Shown: positions 7,912 to 33,207 of the stretch, piece by piece
Numbering within the stretch: the first letter of the stretch is position 1
Layout: each line of letters begins with the position of its first letter
UHGV virus genome: UHGV-0270985
DNA: 39,699 nt
Strand: one strand, 5' to 3'
Source of the DNA: a virus
Program-made: the position numbers and the translations under genes
The notes under the pieces: generated by a model
The model's database searches: none
Seen by the model: only the letters and a program-made list of their open reading frames with translations
What the model was told of the DNA's origin: nothing

Positions 7912-10900
7912 TCAGGCACTGCATAATCCTCCGTCCCGACGTGATGACTGCATAATTGACACAACCCTGCTGTCGATCAGATCCACCAGTCCCCTGGCTG
8001 AGCGCGCATCTATCTCGCCATTGCTCCCTTGATTCTGAATGCTGATGTGATACACGGGAGAATAAACAAATCCACCGCCACCATTCACATTTCCAATGGC
8101 CCTGACCCCAAGAGAGCCGTCCGCTGCCCGTGTCAGTGGCATGATTGCTTCAGGCCCGGCCTCGCCCATCAGCCCGGCACCTTTCGCAAAAGCAAAATAC
8201 GTCGGGGTATCCACAATGGTGTTACTGTAAGCACTCAGATTTGCCGATGTATAAACACCACCTTTTGCGTTTGCCACTGCACCGGAAAGCCAGTCGCCGA
8301 CTGTACCAAGCCATCCTCCGGCACCGGACATGCTTTTGGAAAGTGACTTCAGCCCGTTAACGATGGCAGCGTTCATCAGAATTTTTGAAACTTCCTGGAG
8401 AATTGAACTCCCCCAGTTTCTCCAGTCCACAACATTTCCGGCCAGTGCATCGGAAATATTTGATACCAGCCCGTCCATAGTGGAAACGACAGCATCTGCC
8501 GCCTGCGAAGCATAATCGGTGGCACTGTCTGCCCAGTTCGTCAGTCCCTCCTGGAGTCCGGCATTCCAGTTACTGCGTAAAGCATCAGCCTTTGCATAAT
8601 AATCCTGCTGATCGCTGAGACGCTCTTCCAGATATTTTTCATTCAGAGATTTTTCCTGTTTCCACAGGGCTTCTTCAATTTCTCCGGCCTGATACTGTCT
8701 CAGTAGCTCGTTATTTTTCTGCTCAAACTCCTGCCGGATGCTCCACATTTCCTGAAGTCGTTCACGCATCCGTGAGCCTTCACCATATCCCAGTAACTGA
8801 GCCTCATTTGATGCTCTGACACTGGCATTACTGTCCGCCAGACTGCTCTCATACGCAGCAAGCTGCTCACGAATCTTTTTCTGGTCGATGAGTGCTGCAT
8901 TCTGCAAAAGCGTTTTTTTCTGCGCTTCTGACAGGGTTGATAATTCGCCCTGGCTGACCTGATATTTCATCTTAGCCAGTTCAGTATTCTGCCCTGCCAG
9001 TGCTATTTGCTCTTTTTGCTGTTTAATCAGTTGCTTATAAGTATCTTCTATTTTTTCCGCTTCGGTCTTTTTATGCGCTTTGGGTTTATTTGCCTGGTTA
9101 TTTCGCCATGCATCCAGTGAGTTATTTATATAATTCAGTCTTGCTGTCTGATACGCCTCTCCCACAAAGCCGAGATCATCCGCAGCATAACCCAGGCGGG
9201 CACGCTCACGAGCTTCCCCCTTCAGGCGGGACAGAGCCAGTTCGCGCTCGCTGTTATTCAGTGCGGTCTGCTGTTTATCATCCAGGGTTGCCTGTGGTAG
9301 CCGTAACGGTACATTCACCAGCCCCTGTCGCTGCTGAAGTAATTCATTACCGAGCCCGAGAAGGCGATTAAACTCGGTATGCTGCCCATTCATGATCAAC
9401 AGGGACTGATACGCTTTGTTTTGTTCCGCTGCCTGTTGACGGATCAACGCCACCCGTCGCTCCTCCAGCCCGGCAAGCACATCCTGAATGGATTGCGCTT
9501 TGCCCTGCATTTGAGTGAGGCGAGACTGTTCAACTGCCAGTTGATTTGTTGCTTCTGCAAGCCCTTCTGTGACAGTTTTTACCGACGTCATGTGGTTAAT
9601 CATAAAACCGTTATCGGTTGTCCAGCCCGGGTTTGCCAGCACATACTGATAGCCAGCAATTTTTTCCTGTAAGGATTTAATCTTACTTTTCTGCTCGTCA
9701 ATTAACCTGTTTTGCTCCTTCAGTGCCTGTCGCGTCTTTTCCTCATTATCTGACGCTTCAGGAAGCGACATTGCCGACGTTTTCTGGCGAATTTCGTCGA
9801 TTGTTGCGGCATACTGTCGTGCAGATTCTCTGGCCTGCTCCTGATTCTGATACATCGTGTACCAGGCCGCAGCCCCCAGCATGACGAGTCCCGGCACACC
9901 ACCAACCAGCCCCAGCGCGCCACTTAATAAACGACTCCCCACTGACGTAACATTATTCAGCGTTGTCTGTGCCGCTGTTCTGGCCGCAATATTACGGGTA
10001 AGTGACACCTGGGCAGCTGTCAGCTTCGCTTCTGCTGCGGCCTGCCTTTCGGTACCGCGAGCAGCAACAACCGCCTGTTGCGCACGATAAACCGCCGCAC
10101 GCGCCCTGGCGGTTGCTATCTGTGTCCCCCGAAGTTGCACTTCAGCAAGAGCCACTTCGTTTCTGGCTGCAGTAATTAATCCGGCAGTTGCAGATCCAGC
10201 AGACGACGCCATATTGCCAAAATATCGGGCTACCCCGACGGCAACCAGAGCACCAGCAGCGGTTGCCACGGTGTCAATATTGCCTGCAATACCATTCAGC
10301 ACACCGGAGAGCGTCTTCGTCACTCCGCTTGCCTCGTTCGCACCACCAACCCAGGCCATAAAGGCGTTTTCAACTTTGGTTGCAGAGGATGAAACCGTAT
10401 CAGGCATTGCTGCATATTCATCACGCAACGCCCCAAGCTGACTAATCAGTGCAGGAACAACCTTATCGGCGGTCAGTTTTCCGTTATCCGCCATGGCCTT
10501 CAGATCCTTACGGGCAACCCCCATTCCCGCAGCCAGCGCACGAATAACACGATCGCCGTTCTCATTCACCGAGTTAAACTCTTCACCGCGCAGCACTCCC
10601 TGCGCCAGTGCCTGACTGAACTGCGTGATCACCGAACTGGCTTCTGCTGTACTGGCACCGGATAATTTCAGGCCCGTGGAGATCGCCTCGGTGACTTTCA
10701 GTACCTCCTCAGAACTGTAACCATACTCCCGCATGGAAGCTGCAGAACGGGCAAAAAGGCTGGCGTTATCAGAAAACGCCGTCCCCGTTCTCTGGCTGAT
10801 CGCCATTAATTCACGCTGTGATGACTGAAAATCATCACTGGACTGTGAGGCCTGCTTCAGACGGGCATTTACTGAATTCCACTCATCGGCGAGAGAAATA

Positions 10901-22850: not shown

Positions 22851-23291
22851 AGCCTCACCTCCGCAGCGAACGGATGGCGTAGTTATAAGGGGAGCGAAAA
22901 AGAAAGAATGCGCGATTGCGCAATATGGTAACGTCAGGGTATTATCCACTGGCTGAATAGATCACTTCACGTTTTTTGTTCCTTGCCGCCCGTATCCATA
23001 TGCGGGCTTTTTTTTGCATGTAAAAAGGCCCCAACACATGTGCGTGGGGCCTGAGAGTATACATGGTTTCAGTCAACTGCATGGTGCCGGGTGCCTCCCG
23101 GTGAATTCAGTACCAGCACCTGAATCCGCGATTATCCCATATACCTACTCGCTGATTGCCCCTCCGCACAGGGGGATTCACCATGCCAGTTTCTTTTAAC
23201 AAACTCCCCGCAAAACAGACAACTGTCAACCGTCTGAATTGTGAGACATTTAAAAAAAAGGCCCGCAAAAGCGAGCCGGGAAAAATAAGTC

Positions 23292-23368
23292 TGGCGCGTT
23301 GTACTGGATTCGAACCAGTGACCGATTGCTTAGAAGGCAATTGCTCTGTCCGGTTGAGCTAACAACGC
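23292..23368 (-). tRNA. argO: tRNA-Arg (anticodon UCU), argO-like
   Basis: Manual fold of the reverse complement: acceptor GCGTTGT/ACAACGC, D-arm GCTC...GAGC, anticodon stem ATTGC/GCAAT with loop CTTCTAA, T-arm ACTGG-TTCGAAT-CCAGT, 3' GCCA. Confidence 0.85.
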
Positions 23369-23381
23369 AGGGTACAGATAA

Positions 23382-23458
23382 TGGACCGCCATCGAGGACT
23401 CGAACCCCGCGCAACCAGCTTCGAAGGCTGGTGCTCTATCCTGATGAGCTAATGGCGG
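23382..23458 (-). tRNA. argN: tRNA-Arg (anticodon UCG), argN-like
   Basis: Manual fold: acceptor CCGCCAT/ATGGCGG, anticodon stem CCAGC/GCTGG with loop CTTCGAA, T-loop TTCGAGT, 3' TCCA. Confidence 0.75.
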
Positions 23459-23465
23459 TATGTGA

Positions 23466-23541
23466 TGGTGGCCCTTGCTGGATTTGAACCAGCGACCTGG
23501 CGATTATGAGTCGCTCGCTCTCACCTCTGAGCTAAAGGGCC
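23466..23541 (-). tRNA. ileZ: tRNA with CAU anticodon, most likely lysidine-dependent tRNA-Ile2 (ileZ/ileX-like); tRNA-Met cannot be excluded from the anticodon alone
   Basis: Manual fold: acceptor GGCCCTT/AAGGGCC, anticodon loop CTCATAA, T-loop TTCAAAT; matches the E. coli ileX layout from memory. Confidence 0.75.
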
Positions 23542-26204: not shown

Positions 26205-26230
26205 GAAAAAACAAAACCCGCCGAAGCGGG
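26205..26230 (-). terminator. intrinsic terminator downstream of hok
   Basis: Stem cccgc-cgaa-gcggg; the plus-strand A-run gives a minus-strand U-tract. Confidence 0.45.
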
Positions 26231-26300
26231 TTAAGTGCGGGTGCGTTGAGGATGCCTGACACATCAGAGGCGGCGAGGGATTTCTCCCTCGCCAAGTCTC

Positions 26301-26456
26301 TTACTCCTCAGGTTCGTAGACTGTGAAGACAGCGACCTCCGTCTGGCCGGTTCGGATTCGTACCTCGCAGAGGTCTTTCCTCGTTACCAGTGCCGTCACT
26401 ATGACGGTTAAACAGATGACGATCAGGGCGATTAACATCGCCTTTTGCTGCTTCAT
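26301..26456 (-). CDS. hok: Hok/Gef-family type I toxin (HokD/RelF-like)
   Basis: 51 aa from ATG 26454-26456: MKQQKAMLIALIVICLTVIVTALVTRKDLCEVRIRTGQTEVAVFTVYEPEE; single TM helix and the conserved CE(I/V)R motif. Confidence 0.85.
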   Translation of the reverse strand: MKQQKAMLIALIVICLTVIVTALVTRKDLCEVRIRTGQTEVAVFTVYEPEE

Positions 26457-26747
26457 AGCCTGCTTCTCCTTGCCTTTCGGCACGTAAGAGGCTAACCTAC
26501 GTGTGTAGAGCATAGATATGGCCTCAGATTAATGTTAAGCGTCTTGCCGGACGCGTAATGTTAACTGGGGCTTTTCTCTATCTGCCTTTTGGTGTTCATG
26601 CCTGAGACAGATAGCCTCAAGCACCCGCTGCAATTCTACTTAACTCTCCTTTTCCCGCAAACCGTTTTTATCCCCAGCGGCAAATCGAATACACCACCAG
26701 CGCCACCGCCATCGCAATTCCTACCGTTGTTAATGCTTCAGGCCAGG

Positions 26748-27092
26748 TCATCGTAAAATATCCTCCACGCTTATCAGTCCGTTCCGCTCCAGATAACTCA
26801 TCGCCTTATCCGGTAATTTGCAGTCTGGCTTCGCTTTCCTCAGTTGCCAGGTTAACTGCTTTACCAGCATGGTTAACTCATCGACCAGACGCTGATATCC
26901 CACTGGTTTGTATTCATGCAATTTACCGGCTGGCTCTGCTGCCAGCGATACCAGTGCGATTTCCAGAACAGCAATATCCATCTTATATGTGCGGATGATG
27001 TCATGGTCGATTGTGCCCGGTATGCACAGTCTCTGTGCTTCAATAGTCTCCTCTGCGTGAGCTATTAACTGCTCTCTGGTAAAAGTCGTCAT
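26748..27092 (-). CDS. hypothetical 114-aa protein; its N-terminal half is paralogous to the upstream 55-aa ORF
   Basis: Starts MTTFTREQ... and contains ...ALVSLAAEP...; start overlaps the upstream stop (ATGA). Confidence 0.5.
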
Positions 27093-27256
27093 GCCGTAGC
27101 CCCTTCTTGATATTTTTCAAACCAGAACACAACCGGCTCTGCTTCCAGCGATGCCAGCGCAATCCGTGCCAGTTCCATTTGTTCACCACGGGTAAGCCCG
27201 TTTTCAAGCGGGTTTTTAATGAACAATTCAATACGTTCTTTGGTAATAGTGGTCAT
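27089..27256 (-). CDS. hypothetical 55-aa protein, paralogue of the N-terminus of the downstream gene
   Basis: ATG 27254-27256; [55 protein letters not shown]; shares MTTxT(K/R)E and ALxSLxAEP with 26748..27092. Below the ORF-track cut-off. Confidence 0.4.
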
Positions 27257-27266
27257 GTGTTACTCC

Positions 27267-27530
27267 TTAACCCGCAGTGCTTTCAACTGATGAGGGGAAC
27301 AAAATCTTTTCATCAAACCCTGCATTCATATCATGGACAGCAACACACCAATCCATTGACGAACGATTATCAAGAGCCTCCATGATTTCATCCATGCGGC
27401 GCAGGTCATACAGGTAAATGCTTTTATCGCCAATGGTGTAAAAACCAATTTTTTTCGGTGATGGACAGCGATCAAGAACGTCCTGTAATTCGTTCAACCA
27501 TGCCTGTTCTTTTTTTGTCAAAGTTGCCAT
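27267..27530 (-). CDS. hypothetical 87-aa protein
   Basis: Internal ATG (MATLTKKEQAWLNELQDVLDR) chosen because the track start would overlap the upstream gene by about 90 nt. Confidence 0.45.
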   Translation of the reverse strand: MATLTKKEQAWLNELQDVLDRCPSPKKIGFYTIGDKSIYLYDLRRMDEIMEALDNRSSMDWCVAVHDMNAGFDEKILFPSSVESTAG

Positions 27531-27531
27531 A

Positions 27532-27750
27532 TCAGTTTTCCTTATACGGATTAATTTTATTGTGCAGTGTGTTGAACGGAGCCCATACCACGTCGTTATA
27601 CAATTCAATAACTGGCTCAATTATTTTTCCGATTCCCCATACCAGAATTAACGGGGATATCGGTATCATCAACACGATAAACAGAATGAGAAACAAAAAT
27701 TCTGTCGCTCTACTTTTTCGCGGATATTCTTTTCTGAATAATGTAGGCAC
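27532..27750 (-). CDS. small hydrophobic membrane protein
   Basis: 72 aa, AT-rich, with one long hydrophobic stretch (FLFLILFIVLMIPISPLILVWGIG). Confidence 0.45.
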   Translation of the reverse strand: MPTLFRKEYPRKSRATEFLFLILFIVLMIPISPLILVWGIGKIIEPVIELYNDVVWAPFNTLHNKINPYKEN

Positions 27751-27751
27751 A

Positions 27752-27967
27752 TCACTCTCCTTTGTTGCTCCTCAAAATTTTATGCCCTGGCGCAAAAGCA
27801 CGCGTTTTGTCGGCACTTATTCGCCACCCATCTTTACGTGCCTCTTTTGCACAGCCAGCCCATGACGTACCGATATACTCACCAAAATCTGGCGACTGAT
27901 ATTTGCCATCCGTACACTGGCGGCAATCACAATAGAGATGCATGGTATAACTTGCGGCAATACCCAT
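27752..27967 (-). CDS. small Cys-rich protein, possible zinc-binding
   Basis: 71 aa with CDCRQC...C pattern; packed between neighbours with 1-nt gaps. Confidence 0.45.
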   Translation of the reverse strand: MGIAASYTMHLYCDCRQCTDGKYQSPDFGEYIGTSWAGCAKEARKDGWRISADKTRAFAPGHKILRSNKGE

Positions 27968-28327
27968 TCAGCCTCCTTTGATGCCCGTGTTTACAACCAG
28001 GCAGGCCTCCTTGAGTACCCAGTCAATAGCGTCTTTCCATGCTCCGGTTTCAACTGGCGGATCCTCACGCCGTACCTGTTCATAAAAGCGCACAGCTTTA
28101 ACCAGTCCTTCTGATGTCACCGAAGCTGGCGGGGCCGTGAATAACGCCTGAATTTCATAGTTTGGTCTGTCGTTACAATCCTCTTTTGTCGGGACATATT
28201 TCCAGTCACCAACCCACTGCTTCCCCTGAAAGTCTGTAACGCCTTTTTTCACGTAGCGATATCGCCATGCCACTGGTTTTGCCTGCCCTGCCTTTTCATG
28301 CCCTTCCTGATAATTAATCTCGCTCAT
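27968..28327 (-). CDS. hypothetical 119-aa protein
   Basis: ORF with start overlapping the upstream stop (ATGA). Confidence 0.5.
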   Translation of the reverse strand: MSEINYQEGHEKAGQAKPVAWRYRYVKKGVTDFQGKQWVGDWKYVPTKEDCNDRPNYEIQALFTAPPASVTSEGLVKAVRFYEQVRREDPPVETGAWKDAIDWVLKEACLVVNTGIKGG

Positions 28328-28500
28328 TCATCGCCCCACTCATCACAATATGCTTCGACCGGTGTTTTCCCTGCTTCATAATCATCACGCCATGCTTCAG
28401 CATCAGCGGCACTTCCACCGCGTAACTCTGCATAATCCATTAACAGTTCATGCCATTCTTCAAAACTGGCGTTATATTTAGTTGAACCAAAATCAGCCAT
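28324..28500 (-). CDS. small acidic protein, 58 aa
   Basis: ATG 28498-28500; MADFGSTKYNASFEEWHELLMDYAELRGGSAADAEAWRDDYEAGKTPVEAYCDEWGDE; strongly net negative. Below the ORF-track cut-off. Confidence 0.4.
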   Translation of the reverse strand: MADFGSTKYNASFEEWHELLMDYAELRGGSAADAEAWRDDYEAGKTPVEAYCDEWGDE

Positions 28501-28675
28501 TTTGTTCTTCCTCTTCGTCTTTTATTTCGTGGTATGAGTAATTGCAGTAGTTAAAGAAAATATCTTTAGCTTCATCCTGTATTTCATCTGGTGTTGCATC
28601 ATCATCCACTTCGAATTCATCCTCGAAATCTCCACCGGCTATTCCCGTTTCAATAATTATTTTGAATTTTCGCAT
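28493..28675 (-). CDS. small highly acidic protein, 60 aa
   Basis: MRKFKIIIETGIAGGDFEDEFEVDDDATPDEIQDEAKDIFFNYCNYSYHEIKDEEEEQNG; Asp/Glu are roughly a third of residues; AT-rich. Confidence 0.45.
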   Translation of the reverse strand: MRKFKIIIETGIAGGDFEDEFEVDDDATPDEIQDEAKDIFFNYCNYSYHEIKDEEEEQNG

Positions 28676-28803
28676 TTCACTACCGCCCTTTCGGACGGCC
28701 TCCTGATGTTCTGAGGGTGCAGGAATCCCTCCGGTTAAGGATTTAATAAAAATCGTTTCTGATTTAAATCTTCAGTATTTAGTTGTTAGTCGGTTTATAG
28801 CCT

Positions 28804-29115
28804 TTATGCTTCGGCCTTATTTCTCAGCCATACACAAACCGGGCCATCTTCGGTGTCATGTATTGAACCAATAAACCATCCATTGCCCTCTGGTCGTTCC
28901 GGTTCCCATGCAGAAATATCAGCATCACACGCATCAAGGTCAGCACATCCTTCATCTCTGAAGCAGAGGACGTATTGAAGATTATTTTCCTCCATCCAGG
29001 CGTTAAACTCTTCCGTTGAAATATATTCCCGACCGTCACAGAATTTTTCATATTCAGGATGCGTCCAGTAGCCATATTCATCACGTACTACTGGTATTTC
29101 TTTAATTTCATTCAT
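28804..29115 (-). CDS. hypothetical 103-aa acidic, Cys-containing protein
   Basis: ORF preceded by an AT-rich ~125-bp gap (28676-28803) that may hold an internal promoter. Confidence 0.5.
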   Translation of the reverse strand: MNEIKEIPVVRDEYGYWTHPEYEKFCDGREYISTEEFNAWMEENNLQYVLCFRDEGCADLDACDADISAWEPERPEGNGWFIGSIHDTEDGPVCVWLRNKAEA

Positions 29116-29362
29116 TTCTGTTCTCCCACGTTTTCAGACTTTCACCACAGAACGGACAAAATGAAACCCGAACTGGTAATTTAGAAAATTCACCGGAACG
29201 CAACATCACAAAATCAGGACCGCGAGTTAAACTCTCATTCCAGATTTTGTATATCAGCAGACCTTTTCGCATCGTGTATTCAGCATCACGCTCAAGGGAC
29301 TTTGCCAGTGCTGCACATGGTTCTATCTTGTTGCCATTAACCTGGCATTTTGATTCACTCAC
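29108..29362 (-). CDS. hypothetical 84-aa protein with C-terminal CPFC zinc-ribbon-like motif
   Basis: Overlaps both neighbours by 4-8 nt. Confidence 0.5.
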   Translation of the reverse strand: MSESKCQVNGNKIEPCAALAKSLERDAEYTMRKGLLIYKIWNESLTRGPDFVMLRSGEFSKLPVRVSFCPFCGESLKTWENRNE

Positions 29363-29781
29363 CGCACCACCTCCTCAAAATTCCCCTGACAAAACGCCAG
29401 TACACGCTGCATAGCTTCACTCTTCCGGCACTCGCGACAGATTATGTTTAGGCGCCTGTCGTAGCGACGTATTTCTCCGTCAGGTAATGACCAGATAAGG
29501 TCCGGATCAACCGCAGATGGTTTCTTCAGCTTTGCCCTTGAGAGCTTTTTACGGGCATTTTGCCAGTCCTTACGCGCCTGTTCAGACGGGAATAACCCGT
29601 AACCAGAGTTGTATACATCGCCACTGGCAACCAGCTCTCTGGCCAGAACGCTCATCAGATATCTTGTTGCCCCAGTTTTAGTTTCCAGTTGTCGTAACGT
29701 CTCGCGCCCACTCTGGCGTACGAGTTCAACAACCTGCCCTTTAATTTTTTCCCGCTCTTCTTGTGTAAAAACTTTTGCCAC
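29359..29781 (-). CDS. hypothetical 140-aa basic protein in the P (helicase-loader) position; no AAA+ motifs seen
   Basis: Immediately downstream of the O-like gene; no Walker A/B motifs recognisable. Confidence 0.5.
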   Translation of the reverse strand: MAKVFTQEEREKIKGQVVELVRQSGRETLRQLETKTGATRYLMSVLARELVASGDVYNSGYGLFPSEQARKDWQNARKKLSRAKLKKPSAVDPDLIWSLPDGEIRRYDRRLNIICRECRKSEAMQRVLAFCQGNFEEVVR

Positions 29782-29821
29782 AAGCCCTCCTGAAAATTAC
29801 CTCATGACCAGAAATTAACAC

Positions 29822-30784
29822 TTACCCCCTGAATCCCGGCGGTATTTCAGTGTCCGGTTCAGAAATGTGATTCACGCAACGCTGCGCAGGCGAACGCCCC
29901 AGGCGGATAACCAGTTCATCCCATTTTTCCCGGAGTTTTGCCGGACTCATGATGTTTTTTACCCAGAACGAATCCCGCTGGAGACGCCCAAACATTTCAC
30001 AAATTTGTCTGTGAGTTCTGCCATCCAGCATCCGCATTGTGCGAACGTCATTGGCCCATGCTGTCCAGTTGGGTTCTTTCGGTCTAGTGATCTCGCCATC
30101 ATCGCTGGCCGCCTGCTCGTAAAGACTCACGATTCGTCCCCAGATCCACTGTGCGCACACCAAATCTTCCTGACTTCCCCACTGGCGTTTTTTCGCACTG
30201 AACACAACCGCGTCAGGGTGTCGGGTTAAAAAATCCTGTTCAGCCGTCTGCGGGTCCGGTTGCGAAGCGTCCGGACAAGAAGATCTTTTATCTGACGGAT
30301 CAGGTTTTAATACTGACGGATCGGGGTCAATCATCGCCCCCCTAATCGGCAGTTTTTTATCAACGGTTGATCCATCAAAATTTGACGGGTCAACCGTTGA
30401 GGGGTCAATATTTGACGGGTCAACTGTTAACGGGTCATTTTTTGCCGGGCTAATTTTTCTTTTCGGTTTATATGACTCACGCGCCGCCGCCGCAGCTGCT
30501 TCGAGTTTTTCCACATTAAGCCGATAGATATTGCTTACATTACGCCCACCGACCTTACGCTCTTCCTTCGTCAGCCAGCCCTCTTTCGCCAGTTCTGCAA
30601 TAGCCGATTTCACTGTGGATTCACTTCTTGCACCGATCTGACGCCGGATAGTTTCAATGGCAGGCCATGACACGCCCTCGTCATTGCTGTAGTCTGCAAG
30701 ACGGGCCATAACCGCCACCCTGGATAAGATCATGCCGGTGAAGGCGCACCCTTCCCAGACAAGACCATGAAGCTTGCTGCTCAT
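29822..30784 (-). CDS. replication initiator, O-like, with the origin inside the gene
   Basis: Start taken at ATG 30782-30784 (MSSKLHGL) with a GGGGG ribosome-binding site. N-terminal winged-helix-like region; central peptide repeats (DPLTVDPSNIDPSTVDPSNFDGSTVD) are encoded by the DNA iterons. Confidence 0.6.
   Translation of the reverse strand: MSSKLHGLVWEGCAFTGMILSRVAVMARLADYSNDEGVSWPAIETIRRQIGARSESTVKSAIAELAKEGWLTKEERKVGGRNVSNIYRLNVEKLEAAAAAARESYKPKRKISPAKNDPLTVDPSNIDPSTVDPSNFDGSTVDKKLPIRGAMIDPDPSVLKPDPSDKRSSCPDASQPDPQTAEQDFLTRHPDAVVFSAKKRQWGSQEDLVCAQWIWGRIVSLYEQAASDDGEITRPKEPNWTAWANDVRTMRMLDGRTHRQICEMFGRLQRDSFWVKNIMSPAKLREKWDELVIRLGRSPAQRCVNHISEPDTEIPPGFRG
30320..30440. repeat. origin-of-replication iterons plus adjacent AT-rich tract
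   Basis: At least five copies of (A/G)CGGGTCAA(C/T)-like repeats in direct and inverted orientation (gggtcaatc, tcaacggttga, acgggtcaacc, ggggtcaat, acgggtcaact, acgggtca), followed by cattttttgccgggctaatttttcttttcggtttatat. Confidence 0.6.
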
Positions 30785-30806
30785 AAAACCCCCGAACACC
30801 GTGCTT

Positions 30807-33154: not shown

Positions 33155-33207
33155 TTTCTGGTGACGTTTGGCGGTATCAGTTTTACTCCGTGACTGCTCT
33201 GCCGCCC
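33155..33207 (+). ncRNA. dicF: DicF small RNA (53 nt, Hfq-dependent cell-division inhibitor)
   Basis: tttctggtgacgtttggcggtatcagttttactccgtgactgctctgccgccc followed by TTTTT; matches the DicF sequence as I recall it, including the GGCGG...CCGCC terminator stem. Confidence 0.8.

Follow-up and report, generated by a model that had tools for sequence, protein, structure and literature searches.

A dense array of eleven small early genes in a Qin/Rac-type lambdoid prophage is probably a nin-equivalent accessory segment

Between the replication gene and hokD of the virus genome UHGV-0270985 (39,699 nucleotides (nt), analysed at its full length and referred to below as the window) lies a dense array of small open reading frames (ORFs), at positions 26748-29781 on the minus strand. 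The window is a nearly complete lambdoid E. coli prophage, with HK97-type head genes and lambda-type tail genes. On the balance of the evidence set out below, we consider it probable that the array is the nin-equivalent accessory segment of the early-right operon in a Qin/Rac-type lambdoid E. coli prophage. The array consists of interchangeable cassettes of widespread, uncharacterised phage families, and is not a new kind of system. Its layout resembles that of the lambda nin region and its content is of the exo-xis/ea type, the characterised members of which are small modulators; together, these properties lead us to read it as a dispensable accessory segment. Because there is no nin homologue among the ORFs, the term 'nin-equivalent' refers here to position and organisation, and not to shared genes.

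Organisation and conservation of the array

The array comprises exactly 11 ORFs of 55-140 amino acids (aa), which we number ORF1 to ORF11 in the direction of transcription. All are on the minus strand and, as calculated from the coordinates, about 95% of the 3034 bases are coding. An earlier reading of the sequence by itself (the original prediction) had counted about eleven small, packed ORFs in this interval, and both count and coordinates agree with PGAP: its annotation of an E. coli chromosome that is 100% identical has the same 11 coding sequences in the interval bounded by the replication gene and hokD. The overlapping start and stop codons described there are likewise present: neighbouring ORFs overlap by 4, 8, 8, 4 and 4 nt or are separated by gaps of 0, 1, 1 and 10 nt, with the single exception of a 128-nt gap before ORF4. 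A GGAG-type Shine-Dalgarno site is found at most of the 11 starts. In a sequence scan, no promoter or terminator signal inside the array rose above the level of shuffled sequences. The position and orientation of the array, and the lack of a convincing internal promoter or terminator, suggest transcription from the early-right promoter (pR), which, after loss of the repressor, would drive the array as one message through the replication gene. The gene overlaps further suggest that adjacent genes are probably translated by coupling. In 1-kb windows, the G+C content of the array is 0.44-0.47, versus 0.50-0.60 in the structural-gene part of the prophage (1-19 kb).

ORF4 to ORF9 are shown to be under purifying selection. 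The ratio of non-synonymous to synonymous differences (pN/pS) was computed only where diverged copies were available, that is for these six genes, and amounts to 0.03-0.05 for ORF4, 0.04 for ORF5, 0.25 for ORF6, 0-0.14 for ORF7, 0.18 for ORF8 and 0.06-0.13 for ORF9. Each exact protein sequence of the array occurs on at least 1000 contigs, where it is always labelled 'hypothetical' or 'prophage protein', and the collection index lists the exact ORF4 sequence in 13404 blocks and the exact ORF7 sequence in 11619. Because the array ORFs are, judged by their sequences, real and conserved genes, the lack of conservation that the original prediction had named as the opposing outcome is not what we found; the exact proteins are widespread and their pN/pS is low.

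The description of these ORFs as unknown does not hold in the sense of unrecognisable. All 11 match a PHROG family and three of them (ORF1, ORF4 and ORF8) a Pfam DUF; ORF1 belongs to the PHROG family of lambda Ren, and ORF6, ORF10 and ORF11 are made up of EaA/Ea22-type pieces. Several more specific features of the original prediction were recovered. The two consecutive very acidic proteins are ORF4 and ORF5, with an isoelectric point (pI) of 4.05 each, and as ORF3 is also acidic (pI 4.14), ORF3-5 form a row of three acidic proteins with 24-33% D/E. The two Cys-motif proteins are ORF2, with four invariant cysteines, and ORF7, with a YCDCxxC motif, and the small membrane protein is ORF8, which has a single strong transmembrane segment. 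A transmembrane segment was found in none of the other ORFs.

Cassette exchange and comparison with known regions

To locate the boundaries of exchange, the array was compared with nine related loci. Breakpoints recur at 29354/29358 (the ORF1 stop), 28747 (72 nt upstream of the ORF4 start), 27973 (ORF6 stop/ORF7 start), 27534 (ORF8 stop/ORF9 start), 27131 (inside the EaA module of ORF10) and 26751 (the ORF11 stop), and identical breakpoints are seen again in independent loci. These recurrent breakpoints define five cassettes: M1 (ORF1), M2 (ORF2-3), M3 (a leader with ORF4-5-6), M4 (ORF7-8) and M5 (ORF9-10-11). The comparison shows that the cassettes are swapped among prophages at gene boundaries or within the EaA N-terminal module. 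Alternative occupants of these slots include a set of a DUF4406 gene, an Ead_Ea22 gene and a 99-aa ORF, a 118-aa ORF, a 146-aa protein annotated as Ea22 (locus L001), an EaA-type protein of 181 aa and a DUF551 protein with a length of either 257 or 300 aa. With at least 8 gene arrangements among about 21 related loci, the region is a variable accessory slot.

E. coli O18:H1 CFSAN067215 contains the 4.5-kb stretch from 26300 to 30800 at 100% identity. Of 5426 complete E. coli genomes, 76 have at least 80% of this stretch. Counted at the same level (at least 80% present), M2 is found in 252 and M3 in 1512 (28%) of these genomes. As insertion sequence (IS) elements interrupt the array in some genomes, it tolerates disruption in resident prophages: in one related locus (L024, 6054-7282) a transposase pair (HTH_Tnp_1, rve) splits ORF11 at 27006-27011, and in NZ_CP035850.1 (strain TW10590) the IS21-family element ISEc62 lies within the matched stretch. 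The same cassettes occur in phage-collection records, including those of Shiga toxin (Stx)-converting phages. Homology searches place the same gene families in the exo-xis/ea leftward region of Stx and P22-like phages, and distant relatives in P1-like and many virulent phages. By their distribution, the families with relatives beyond the lambdoid phages are pan-phage early mini-proteins, not lysogeny-specific genes.

The array shares its site in the rightward early operon with lambda ninR, which comprises ren and ninB-ninI: both lie after the replication genes and ahead of the Q antiterminator, with all of these on one strand. In both, the genes are interlinked, their stop and start codons overlapping or abutting, and the first gene is of Ren type. 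The nin region of lambda, from O/P to Q, has been described as a 'chain of interlinked genes'; when it is deleted, plaques still form (PMC10695390). However, none of NinB, C, D, E, F, G, H and I has a homologue among the 11 ORFs, and the array's genes come instead from the ea/exo-xis pool. A further difference is that hok/sok is embedded downstream of the array, with RusA and DUF968 after hok and before Q. No nin family was found with Pfam or NCBIfam, and tblastn against the whole lambda genome gave a short ren match only, which bears out the statement that no lambda nin gene is recognisable here. Since this ren motif of ORF1 is the only match to lambda, the block orf60a-orf63-orf61-orf73-ea22 is not represented in the array either. 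Orf73 is a TraR-like RNA-polymerase binder (PMC9239242; PMC8614690).

With the exo-xis/ea region of lambdoid phages, represented by lambda ea22, 933W L0063-L0069 and P22 eaA-eaI, the array has actual genes in common (933W L0067/L0068, the N-terminus of P22 EaA and the Ea22-type start of ORF6), and both are variable sets of small early genes with a mosaic architecture. The two differ in that the array is on the rightward operon after the replication gene, whereas the exo-xis region is leftward, between exo and xis. Likeness to the Qin and Rac prophages of K-12 lies in DicF, dicB, ydfB, ydfC, ydfD, hokD, DUF968 (YdfU family) and a YdaT-like gene. Unlike K-12 Qin, which has relBE beside hokD, the window contains neither relB nor relE, as the original prediction had noted. 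The comparison with the Rac and Qin gene sets that it had called for was run, and K-12 Rac and Qin, both annotated as cryptic prophages, carry 0 of the 11 ORFs.

The early region of the prophage is Qin/Rac-type, with DicF (33156-33207), dicB and ydfB/C/D, and the prophage adjoins a tRNA-Ser gene and mtfA. Along the direction of transcription, the gene order is repressor and cro-like gene, YdaT/cII-like gene, O-like gene, the 11 ORFs, hok/sok, a 90-aa ORF, DUF968, RusA and Q. The upstream flank is the replication-initiation gene (29822-30799, minus strand; O-like/DnaD-like; phrog_391, E 2e-115), which PGAP annotates as a helix-turn-helix domain-containing protein. This single gene constitutes the replication module here, and the DUF977 gene (ORF1) follows directly; in sister prophages, a helicase-loader gene (lambda-P-like or IstB/DnaC-like) and a DUF1627 gene lie between the O-like and DUF977 genes. 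The downstream flank (26215-26626, minus strand) contains hokD (26301-26456; 98% identical to the K-12 gene), sok (26451-26626; Rfam, 117 bits) and, just past hokD and upstream of DUF968, RusA and Q, a strong intrinsic-terminator-like hairpin at 26232-26215 on the minus strand (AACCCGCTTCGGCGGGTT followed by a T-run). The interval between hok and DUF968 is a second variable cargo slot downstream of the array, the inserts of which are absent from the window: in loci L012, L007 and L017 (~8540-10280) it contains a 216-aa ORF, a 367-aa helix-turn-helix and Peptidase_M78 (ImmA/IrrE-like) gene, and then rem. Farther along, between Q and the lysis cassette (23016-23541), Rfam detects an STnc100 small RNA and three tRNAs, and PGAP four tRNAs (Gly, Thr, Lys, Ile).

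Protein families of the array

The more widespread of the two cassettes in the genome counts above, M3, begins with a leader at 28676-28747 (minus strand, 72 nt) that contains AGGAGG, a hairpin CCGUCC-GAAA-GGGCGG and 7 nt before the AUG of ORF4. The leader is near-identical in all contexts and the sequence 5′ of it differs; the left junction of M3 is 28747 in seven loci, and the right junction is 27973. The AGGAGG is 23 nt upstream of the ORF4 ATG, with the GAAA-tetraloop hairpin between them, the stem of which is a perfect CCGCCC in L001. This hairpin could place the Shine-Dalgarno sequence about 7 nt from the ORF4 start and thereby form a split ribosome-binding site. The fold of the leader is not significantly stable (z -1.26), and we rejected the leader as a structured RNA, given that this z value is not unusual and that there is no Rfam match at the leader. 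A scan found no promoter-like site on its coding strand. ORF4-5-6 are kept together in every context seen, one of which is another phage type with terminase genes shortly after (L010), and M3 is also present in Stx phages and in a non-Qin phage.

ORF4 (28493-28675; 60 aa with 20 D/E, pI 4.05) is a DUF7167 protein. An AlphaFold2 model built from the family alignment (predicted local distance difference test (pLDDT) 88) has a beta-beta-alpha core and a disordered acidic tail, and a BFVD search with ORF4 returned uncharacterised phage proteins only. Its relatives include proteins of Klebsiella Guernseyvirinae and Enterococcus Herelleviridae phages, along with 111 representative clusters in which the proteins are mostly stand-alone and 50-60 aa long; DUF7167 is also found in phages of Enterococcus, Lactococcus and Streptomyces. 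A kinship of DUF7167 to lambda Orf55, a small beta/alpha protein of the exo-xis region, was rejected (profile comparison probability 0.3%). In Klebsiella Guernseyvirinae phages (L027 3501-5025, L028 3501-5025), the DUF7167 homologue overlaps the start of a 454-aa exonuclease gene, and in Enterococcus Herelleviridae phages (L029 2971-3671) it overlaps the end of a 180-aa exonuclease gene. This pairing recalls phage T7, in which gene 5.9, encoding a RecBCD inhibitor, adjoins the exonuclease gene 6. As a lead, however, the adjacency is weakened by other contexts, which have GamL/RecT or gyrase/ligase neighbours and no adjacent exonuclease.

The other two genes of M3 are ORF5 (28324-28500; 58 aa, pI 4.05; phrog_519, E 8.5e-23), which has relatives in 198 phage records, those listed being mostly Vi01-like phages of about 157 kb at 55-60% identity, and ORF6 (27968-28327; 119 aa). 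The latter is an Ea22/EaA-type chimera: its first residues are the Ea22-type start MSEINYQ, after which comes a middle region of phrog_660 type (EaA-like; phrog_660 positions 34-143, E 7e-43).

ORF1 (29359-29781; 140 aa, pI 9.75), which by itself constitutes M1, is the first gene after the replication gene and is DUF977/Ren-like. It matches Pfam DUF977 with 98.1 bits (cutoff 22.1), residues 1-135 being aligned to profile positions 1-133 of 134, and phrog_142, a 'Ren-like exclusion protein' family, with E 4.7e-46. Lambda ren gives protection from Rex exclusion. Its product matches phrog_142 too (E 1.6e-41), both proteins span nearly the full profile, and they have in common a C-terminal motif, NxxxxECRxSxAMxRVLA, in which 11 of 18 residues are identical. 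ORF1 is also in the ren position, directly after the replication genes in both phages; in lambda, the gene before ren is P. On the other hand, lambda Ren has 96 aa versus 140 aa for ORF1, the pairwise similarity is confined to these 18 residues, lambda Ren falls below the Pfam DUF977 model in the profile search, and no rexAB is annotated in the prophage of ORF1. A homology of ORF1 to YdaW of K-12 Rac was considered and rejected, as the comparison found no similarity. ORF1 is split in phage vB_EcoS-689R5.

DUF977 has been predicted to be a winged helix (PMC2686095), and ORF1 probably adopts this fold. In lambda, ren is transcribed from pR, the Rex proteins interact with Ren, and Ren is 'likely involved in DNA replication' (bioRxiv 10.1101/2021.04.19.439022). 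As a Ren-type winged helix, ORF1 would be predicted to work with the replication module and/or to counter a Rex-like abortive-infection system. The PHROGs category of phrog_142 is 'moron, auxiliary metabolic gene and host takeover', and its label is the sole functional one in the array that bears on anti-defence.

M2 consists of ORF2 (29108-29362; 84 aa; phrog_4030, E 7e-39), a four-cysteine, zinc-ribbon-like protein, and ORF3 (28804-29115; 103 aa, pI 4.14), which represents a stand-alone alpha+beta family of proteobacterial phages. The cysteines C6, C16, C69 and C72 of ORF2 are invariant in relatives down to 36% identity, namely P7 Upf87.4 and proteins of Salmonella virus VSiA and Erwinia phage Gungnir39. 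Comparison of ORF2 with PDB gave weak matches only, to zinc-ribbon proteins. Relatives of ORF2 occur in 19 phage records; that of P7, Upf87.4, belongs to the hea operon, which C1 controls, and in Salmonella virus VSiA (Guernseyvirinae) the homologue adjoins the DNA polymerase gene. In Enterobacterales, 236 homologues match ORF3 at 52-98% identity and 18 positions are invariant; ORF3 is conserved down to 28% identity across proteobacterial phages. Its 83 phage records include Burkholderia, Pseudomonas and Vibrio phages, PY54, D6 and mEp213. The mEp213 homologue is just after N in the leftward operon, and that of PY54 is in the early region alongside recombination and exonuclease genes. An AlphaFold2 model of ORF3 from the family alignment (pLDDT 85, predicted template modelling score 0.76) places two helices on a three-stranded sheet. 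Confident as they are, the models of ORF3 and ORF4 returned no informative structural relatives. From their composition, ORF3, ORF4 and ORF5 would probably occupy basic, nucleic-acid-binding surfaces of partner proteins.

M4 is formed by ORF7 (27752-27967; 71 aa; phrog_926), a Cys/His-motif protein, and ORF8 (27532-27750; 72 aa; DUF4014, Pfam 89.7 bits), a single-pass membrane protein. The conserved motif of ORF7 is YCDCxxC...GWxI...APGH, and its relatives are found in 431 phage records, including Ackermannviridae and Rogunavirus. Fingers of the TraR/Orf73 type have the cysteine spacing CxxC...CxxC. We considered ORF2 and ORF7 as such zinc fingers and rejected this, because there is no Pfam match and the spacing of their cysteines differs; both are nonetheless predicted to be zinc-binding mini-proteins. 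ORF8, the transmembrane segment of which covers residues 19-37 (Kyte-Doolittle 3.0), is predicted to be a small inner-membrane protein. ORF7 is 94% identical in amino acid sequence to 933W L0068 and ORF8 92% to L0067, two genes in the variable part of the exo-xis region that have xis on one side and the Ea22-type gene L0069 on the other. The PHROG label of ORF8 (phrog_1832), 'released from the phage upon host infection', is not credible; the same label is on the 471-aa P22 gp20, and its presence on DUF4014 looks like an annotation-transfer error from this P22 ejection protein. A record assigned to 'Actinobacillus phage vB_Apl-pPE4' (PP818812.1) has this E. coli prophage segment at 94% DNA identity, with an ORF7 protein that is 100% identical, which is odd for a Pasteurellaceae phage and suggests contamination or a mis-assigned host.

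The last cassette, M5, comprises ORF9 (27267-27530; 87 aa, pI 4.67; phrog_1714, E 1.7e-50), with relatives in 84 phage records, among them those of Salmonella phage FSL SP-030 and of Vibrio phages, ORF10 (27089-27256; 55 aa) and ORF11 (26748-27092; 114 aa). The original prediction had regarded the last two as a paralogous pair. They do have a common N-terminal module (33% identity over 54 aligned columns, E 1e-4), but a functional duplication is not supported, since ORF10 is a truncated N-terminal module of EaA/DUF551 type, a stub left as a scar of recombination. Over residues 1-42, ORF10 shares 98% identity with the beginning of a 300-aa DUF551 protein, which has its start at the same place in a sister prophage (L020), and ORF10 is 86% identical to residues 1-44 of P22 EaA. 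Its full-length counterparts elsewhere have 300-317 aa, and ORF10 is probably non-functional. ORF11 combines an EaA-like N-terminal module with a helical C-terminal module; it matches phrog_660 in its N-terminal part and at positions 145-193 (E 8e-43), and its last 45 aa match the end of the 181-aa EaA-type protein in L023 at 87% identity. The EaA N-terminal module (MTT[IF]T...ALASLEAEP) is present in ORF10 and is weaker in ORF11 (phrog_60, E 1.5e-7; phrog_5117, E 3e-9).

At E <= 0.1, Pfam Ead_Ea22 (PF13935) has no match in ORF6, ORF10 or ORF11, with lambda Ea22 as a control at 100.9 bits. DUF551 is likewise found in none of the three, the controls being the 300-aa protein of L020 (75.6 bits) and 933W L0065 (83.6 bits). 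The Ea22-like part of ORF6 is limited to its first seven residues (MSEINYQ). As all three fall below the Ead_Ea22 and DUF551 models, they are fragments or mosaics of the EaA/Ea22 class, and not full members. Ea22 has been described as mosaic and pro-lysogenic (PMC10834534). ORF6, ORF10 and ORF11 would be assigned to a mosaic class of which one member, lambda Ea22, biases the lysis-lysogeny decision.

Possible roles of the array

By analogy with the lambda nin and exo-xis genes, the products of a nin-equivalent segment would be small, dispensable proteins that act early in lytic growth by binding to proteins of the host or the phage. Indirect hints of such dispensability come from the cassettes that are replaced or IS-interrupted in related prophages. 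Several points weigh against this assignment. None of the 11 proteins has itself a demonstrated function, no ORF is homologous to a nin protein, and the models of ORF3 and ORF4 did not point to a function. Both expression from pR and translational coupling are deduced solely from the layout, in which the coupling is interrupted by the 128-nt gap before ORF4 and a strong terminator-like hairpin stands after hok, ahead of Q. In addition, the families of ORF4, ORF5, ORF7 and ORF9 are broad in virulent phages, which argues against roles specific to lysogeny.

Several other explanations have to be set beside the assignment as a nin-equivalent segment. The array could be an anti-defence island, most of whose small proteins inhibit host immunity (restriction-modification, abortive infection, RecBCD-type nucleases) and are made early, as a shield for the phage genome during its replication. 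ORF1 shares its PHROG family with lambda Ren, which is labelled an exclusion protein, and ORF3-5 are three consecutive strongly acidic proteins, as is typical of inhibitors that mimic DNA. An arms race would predict the hypervariability seen in the slot, the matched stretch in one related phage includes a methyltransferase gene, and in Klebsiella and Enterococcus phages the DUF7167 gene directly adjoins one for an exonuclease. Against these points, no ORF matches a characterised anti-defence protein or a solved structure, although no dedicated anti-defence profile set was searched. PDB sequence searches gave nothing significant for ORF1, 2, 6, 7, 9 and 11 or for the ORF3 profile, no array ORF has a match in NCBIfam, and ORF1-9 and ORF11 have none among the PADLOC defence models. 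DUF7167 is found in unrelated contexts as well, and one phage contig has it in addition to GamL. Moreover, families that span Enterobacterales phages (and, for DUF7167, those of Enterococcus, Lactococcus and Streptomyces) suggest conserved targets rather than strain-specific immunity; ORF10 is a stub, ORF6 and ORF11 are EaA/Ea22-type mosaics, and the characterised member of that class acts on lysis-lysogeny and not on immunity. For the array as a whole, this explanation is thus possible but doubtful in our view, whereas an anti-defence role for some members (the Ren-like ORF1 and the acidic ORF3-5) is plausible. A more specific proposal is that the leader and ORF4-5-6 are a functional unit, in which the acidic ORF4 and ORF5 would inhibit, by mimicking nucleic acid, a conserved host protein (a nuclease or a DNA-binding defence protein) and would replace Gam/Abc2 in Qin/Rac-type phages. 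The PGAP annotation of the identical prophage lists neither Gam nor Abc2, which is in line both with this proposal and with the anti-defence island; we nevertheless hold the proposal to be a long shot.

It is somewhat less improbable than that long shot, though still unlikely, that the array encodes accessory replication and recombination factors, that is, helpers of DNA metabolism like NinB/Orf, NinG/Rap and Ren that work with the O-like initiator and the RusA/DUF968 nucleases. The array is directly between the replication gene and DUF968/RusA, and Ren is described as 'likely involved in DNA replication'. In virulent phages, DUF7167 homologues adjoin genes for an exonuclease, a Gp2.5-like single-stranded DNA-binding protein (SSB), DNA polymerase, gyrase and ligase, the ORF2 homologue of Salmonella virus VSiA is beside a DNA polymerase gene, and that of ORF3 is with recombination and exonuclease genes in the PY54 early region. 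Such adjacency is weak evidence, however, because phage early regions are rich in DNA-metabolism genes anyway. Pfam and NCBIfam found no nuclease, helicase, SSB or similar domain in any ORF, and in 933W the same genes are in the exo-xis region, far from the replication genes. Contexts of DUF7167 other than those with exonuclease neighbours also contradict such a role. Least probable of all, to the point that we give it very little credence, is decaying cargo, meaning recombination leftovers in a defective prophage that are kept by hitch-hiking only. The 55-aa ORF10 as a stub of a gene that has 300-317 aa elsewhere, the chimeric ORF6, the IS elements that interrupt the array in some genomes, the split ORF1 of vB_EcoS-689R5 and the integrase of the identical prophage, which is annotated as frameshifted, would all fit decay. 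Yet the reading frames are intact and have ribosome-binding sites, ORF3 is conserved to 28% identity across proteobacterial phages, the cassettes are also in phage-collection records including Stx-converting phages, and selection on ORF4-9 is strongly purifying. Pure decay is contradicted by this purifying selection, except for ORF10.

As a nin-equivalent segment, the array is an ordinary genomic feature. Dozens of annotated E. coli genomes already contain its exact sequence, its organisation is textbook nin/ea lambdoid mosaicism, and with every gene in an already catalogued family the region is of a known kind. Its value is that of a catalogue entry for very common small phage proteins without assigned function, namely DUF7167 with its two partners, the ORF3 family and the Cys/His family of ORF7. 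The main point of interest is the ORF4-5-6 cassette, as over a quarter of complete E. coli genomes have DUF7167 and its two partners. If any member of the array were a host-takeover or anti-defence factor, this would apply to Stx-converting phages and to many virulent therapy phages.

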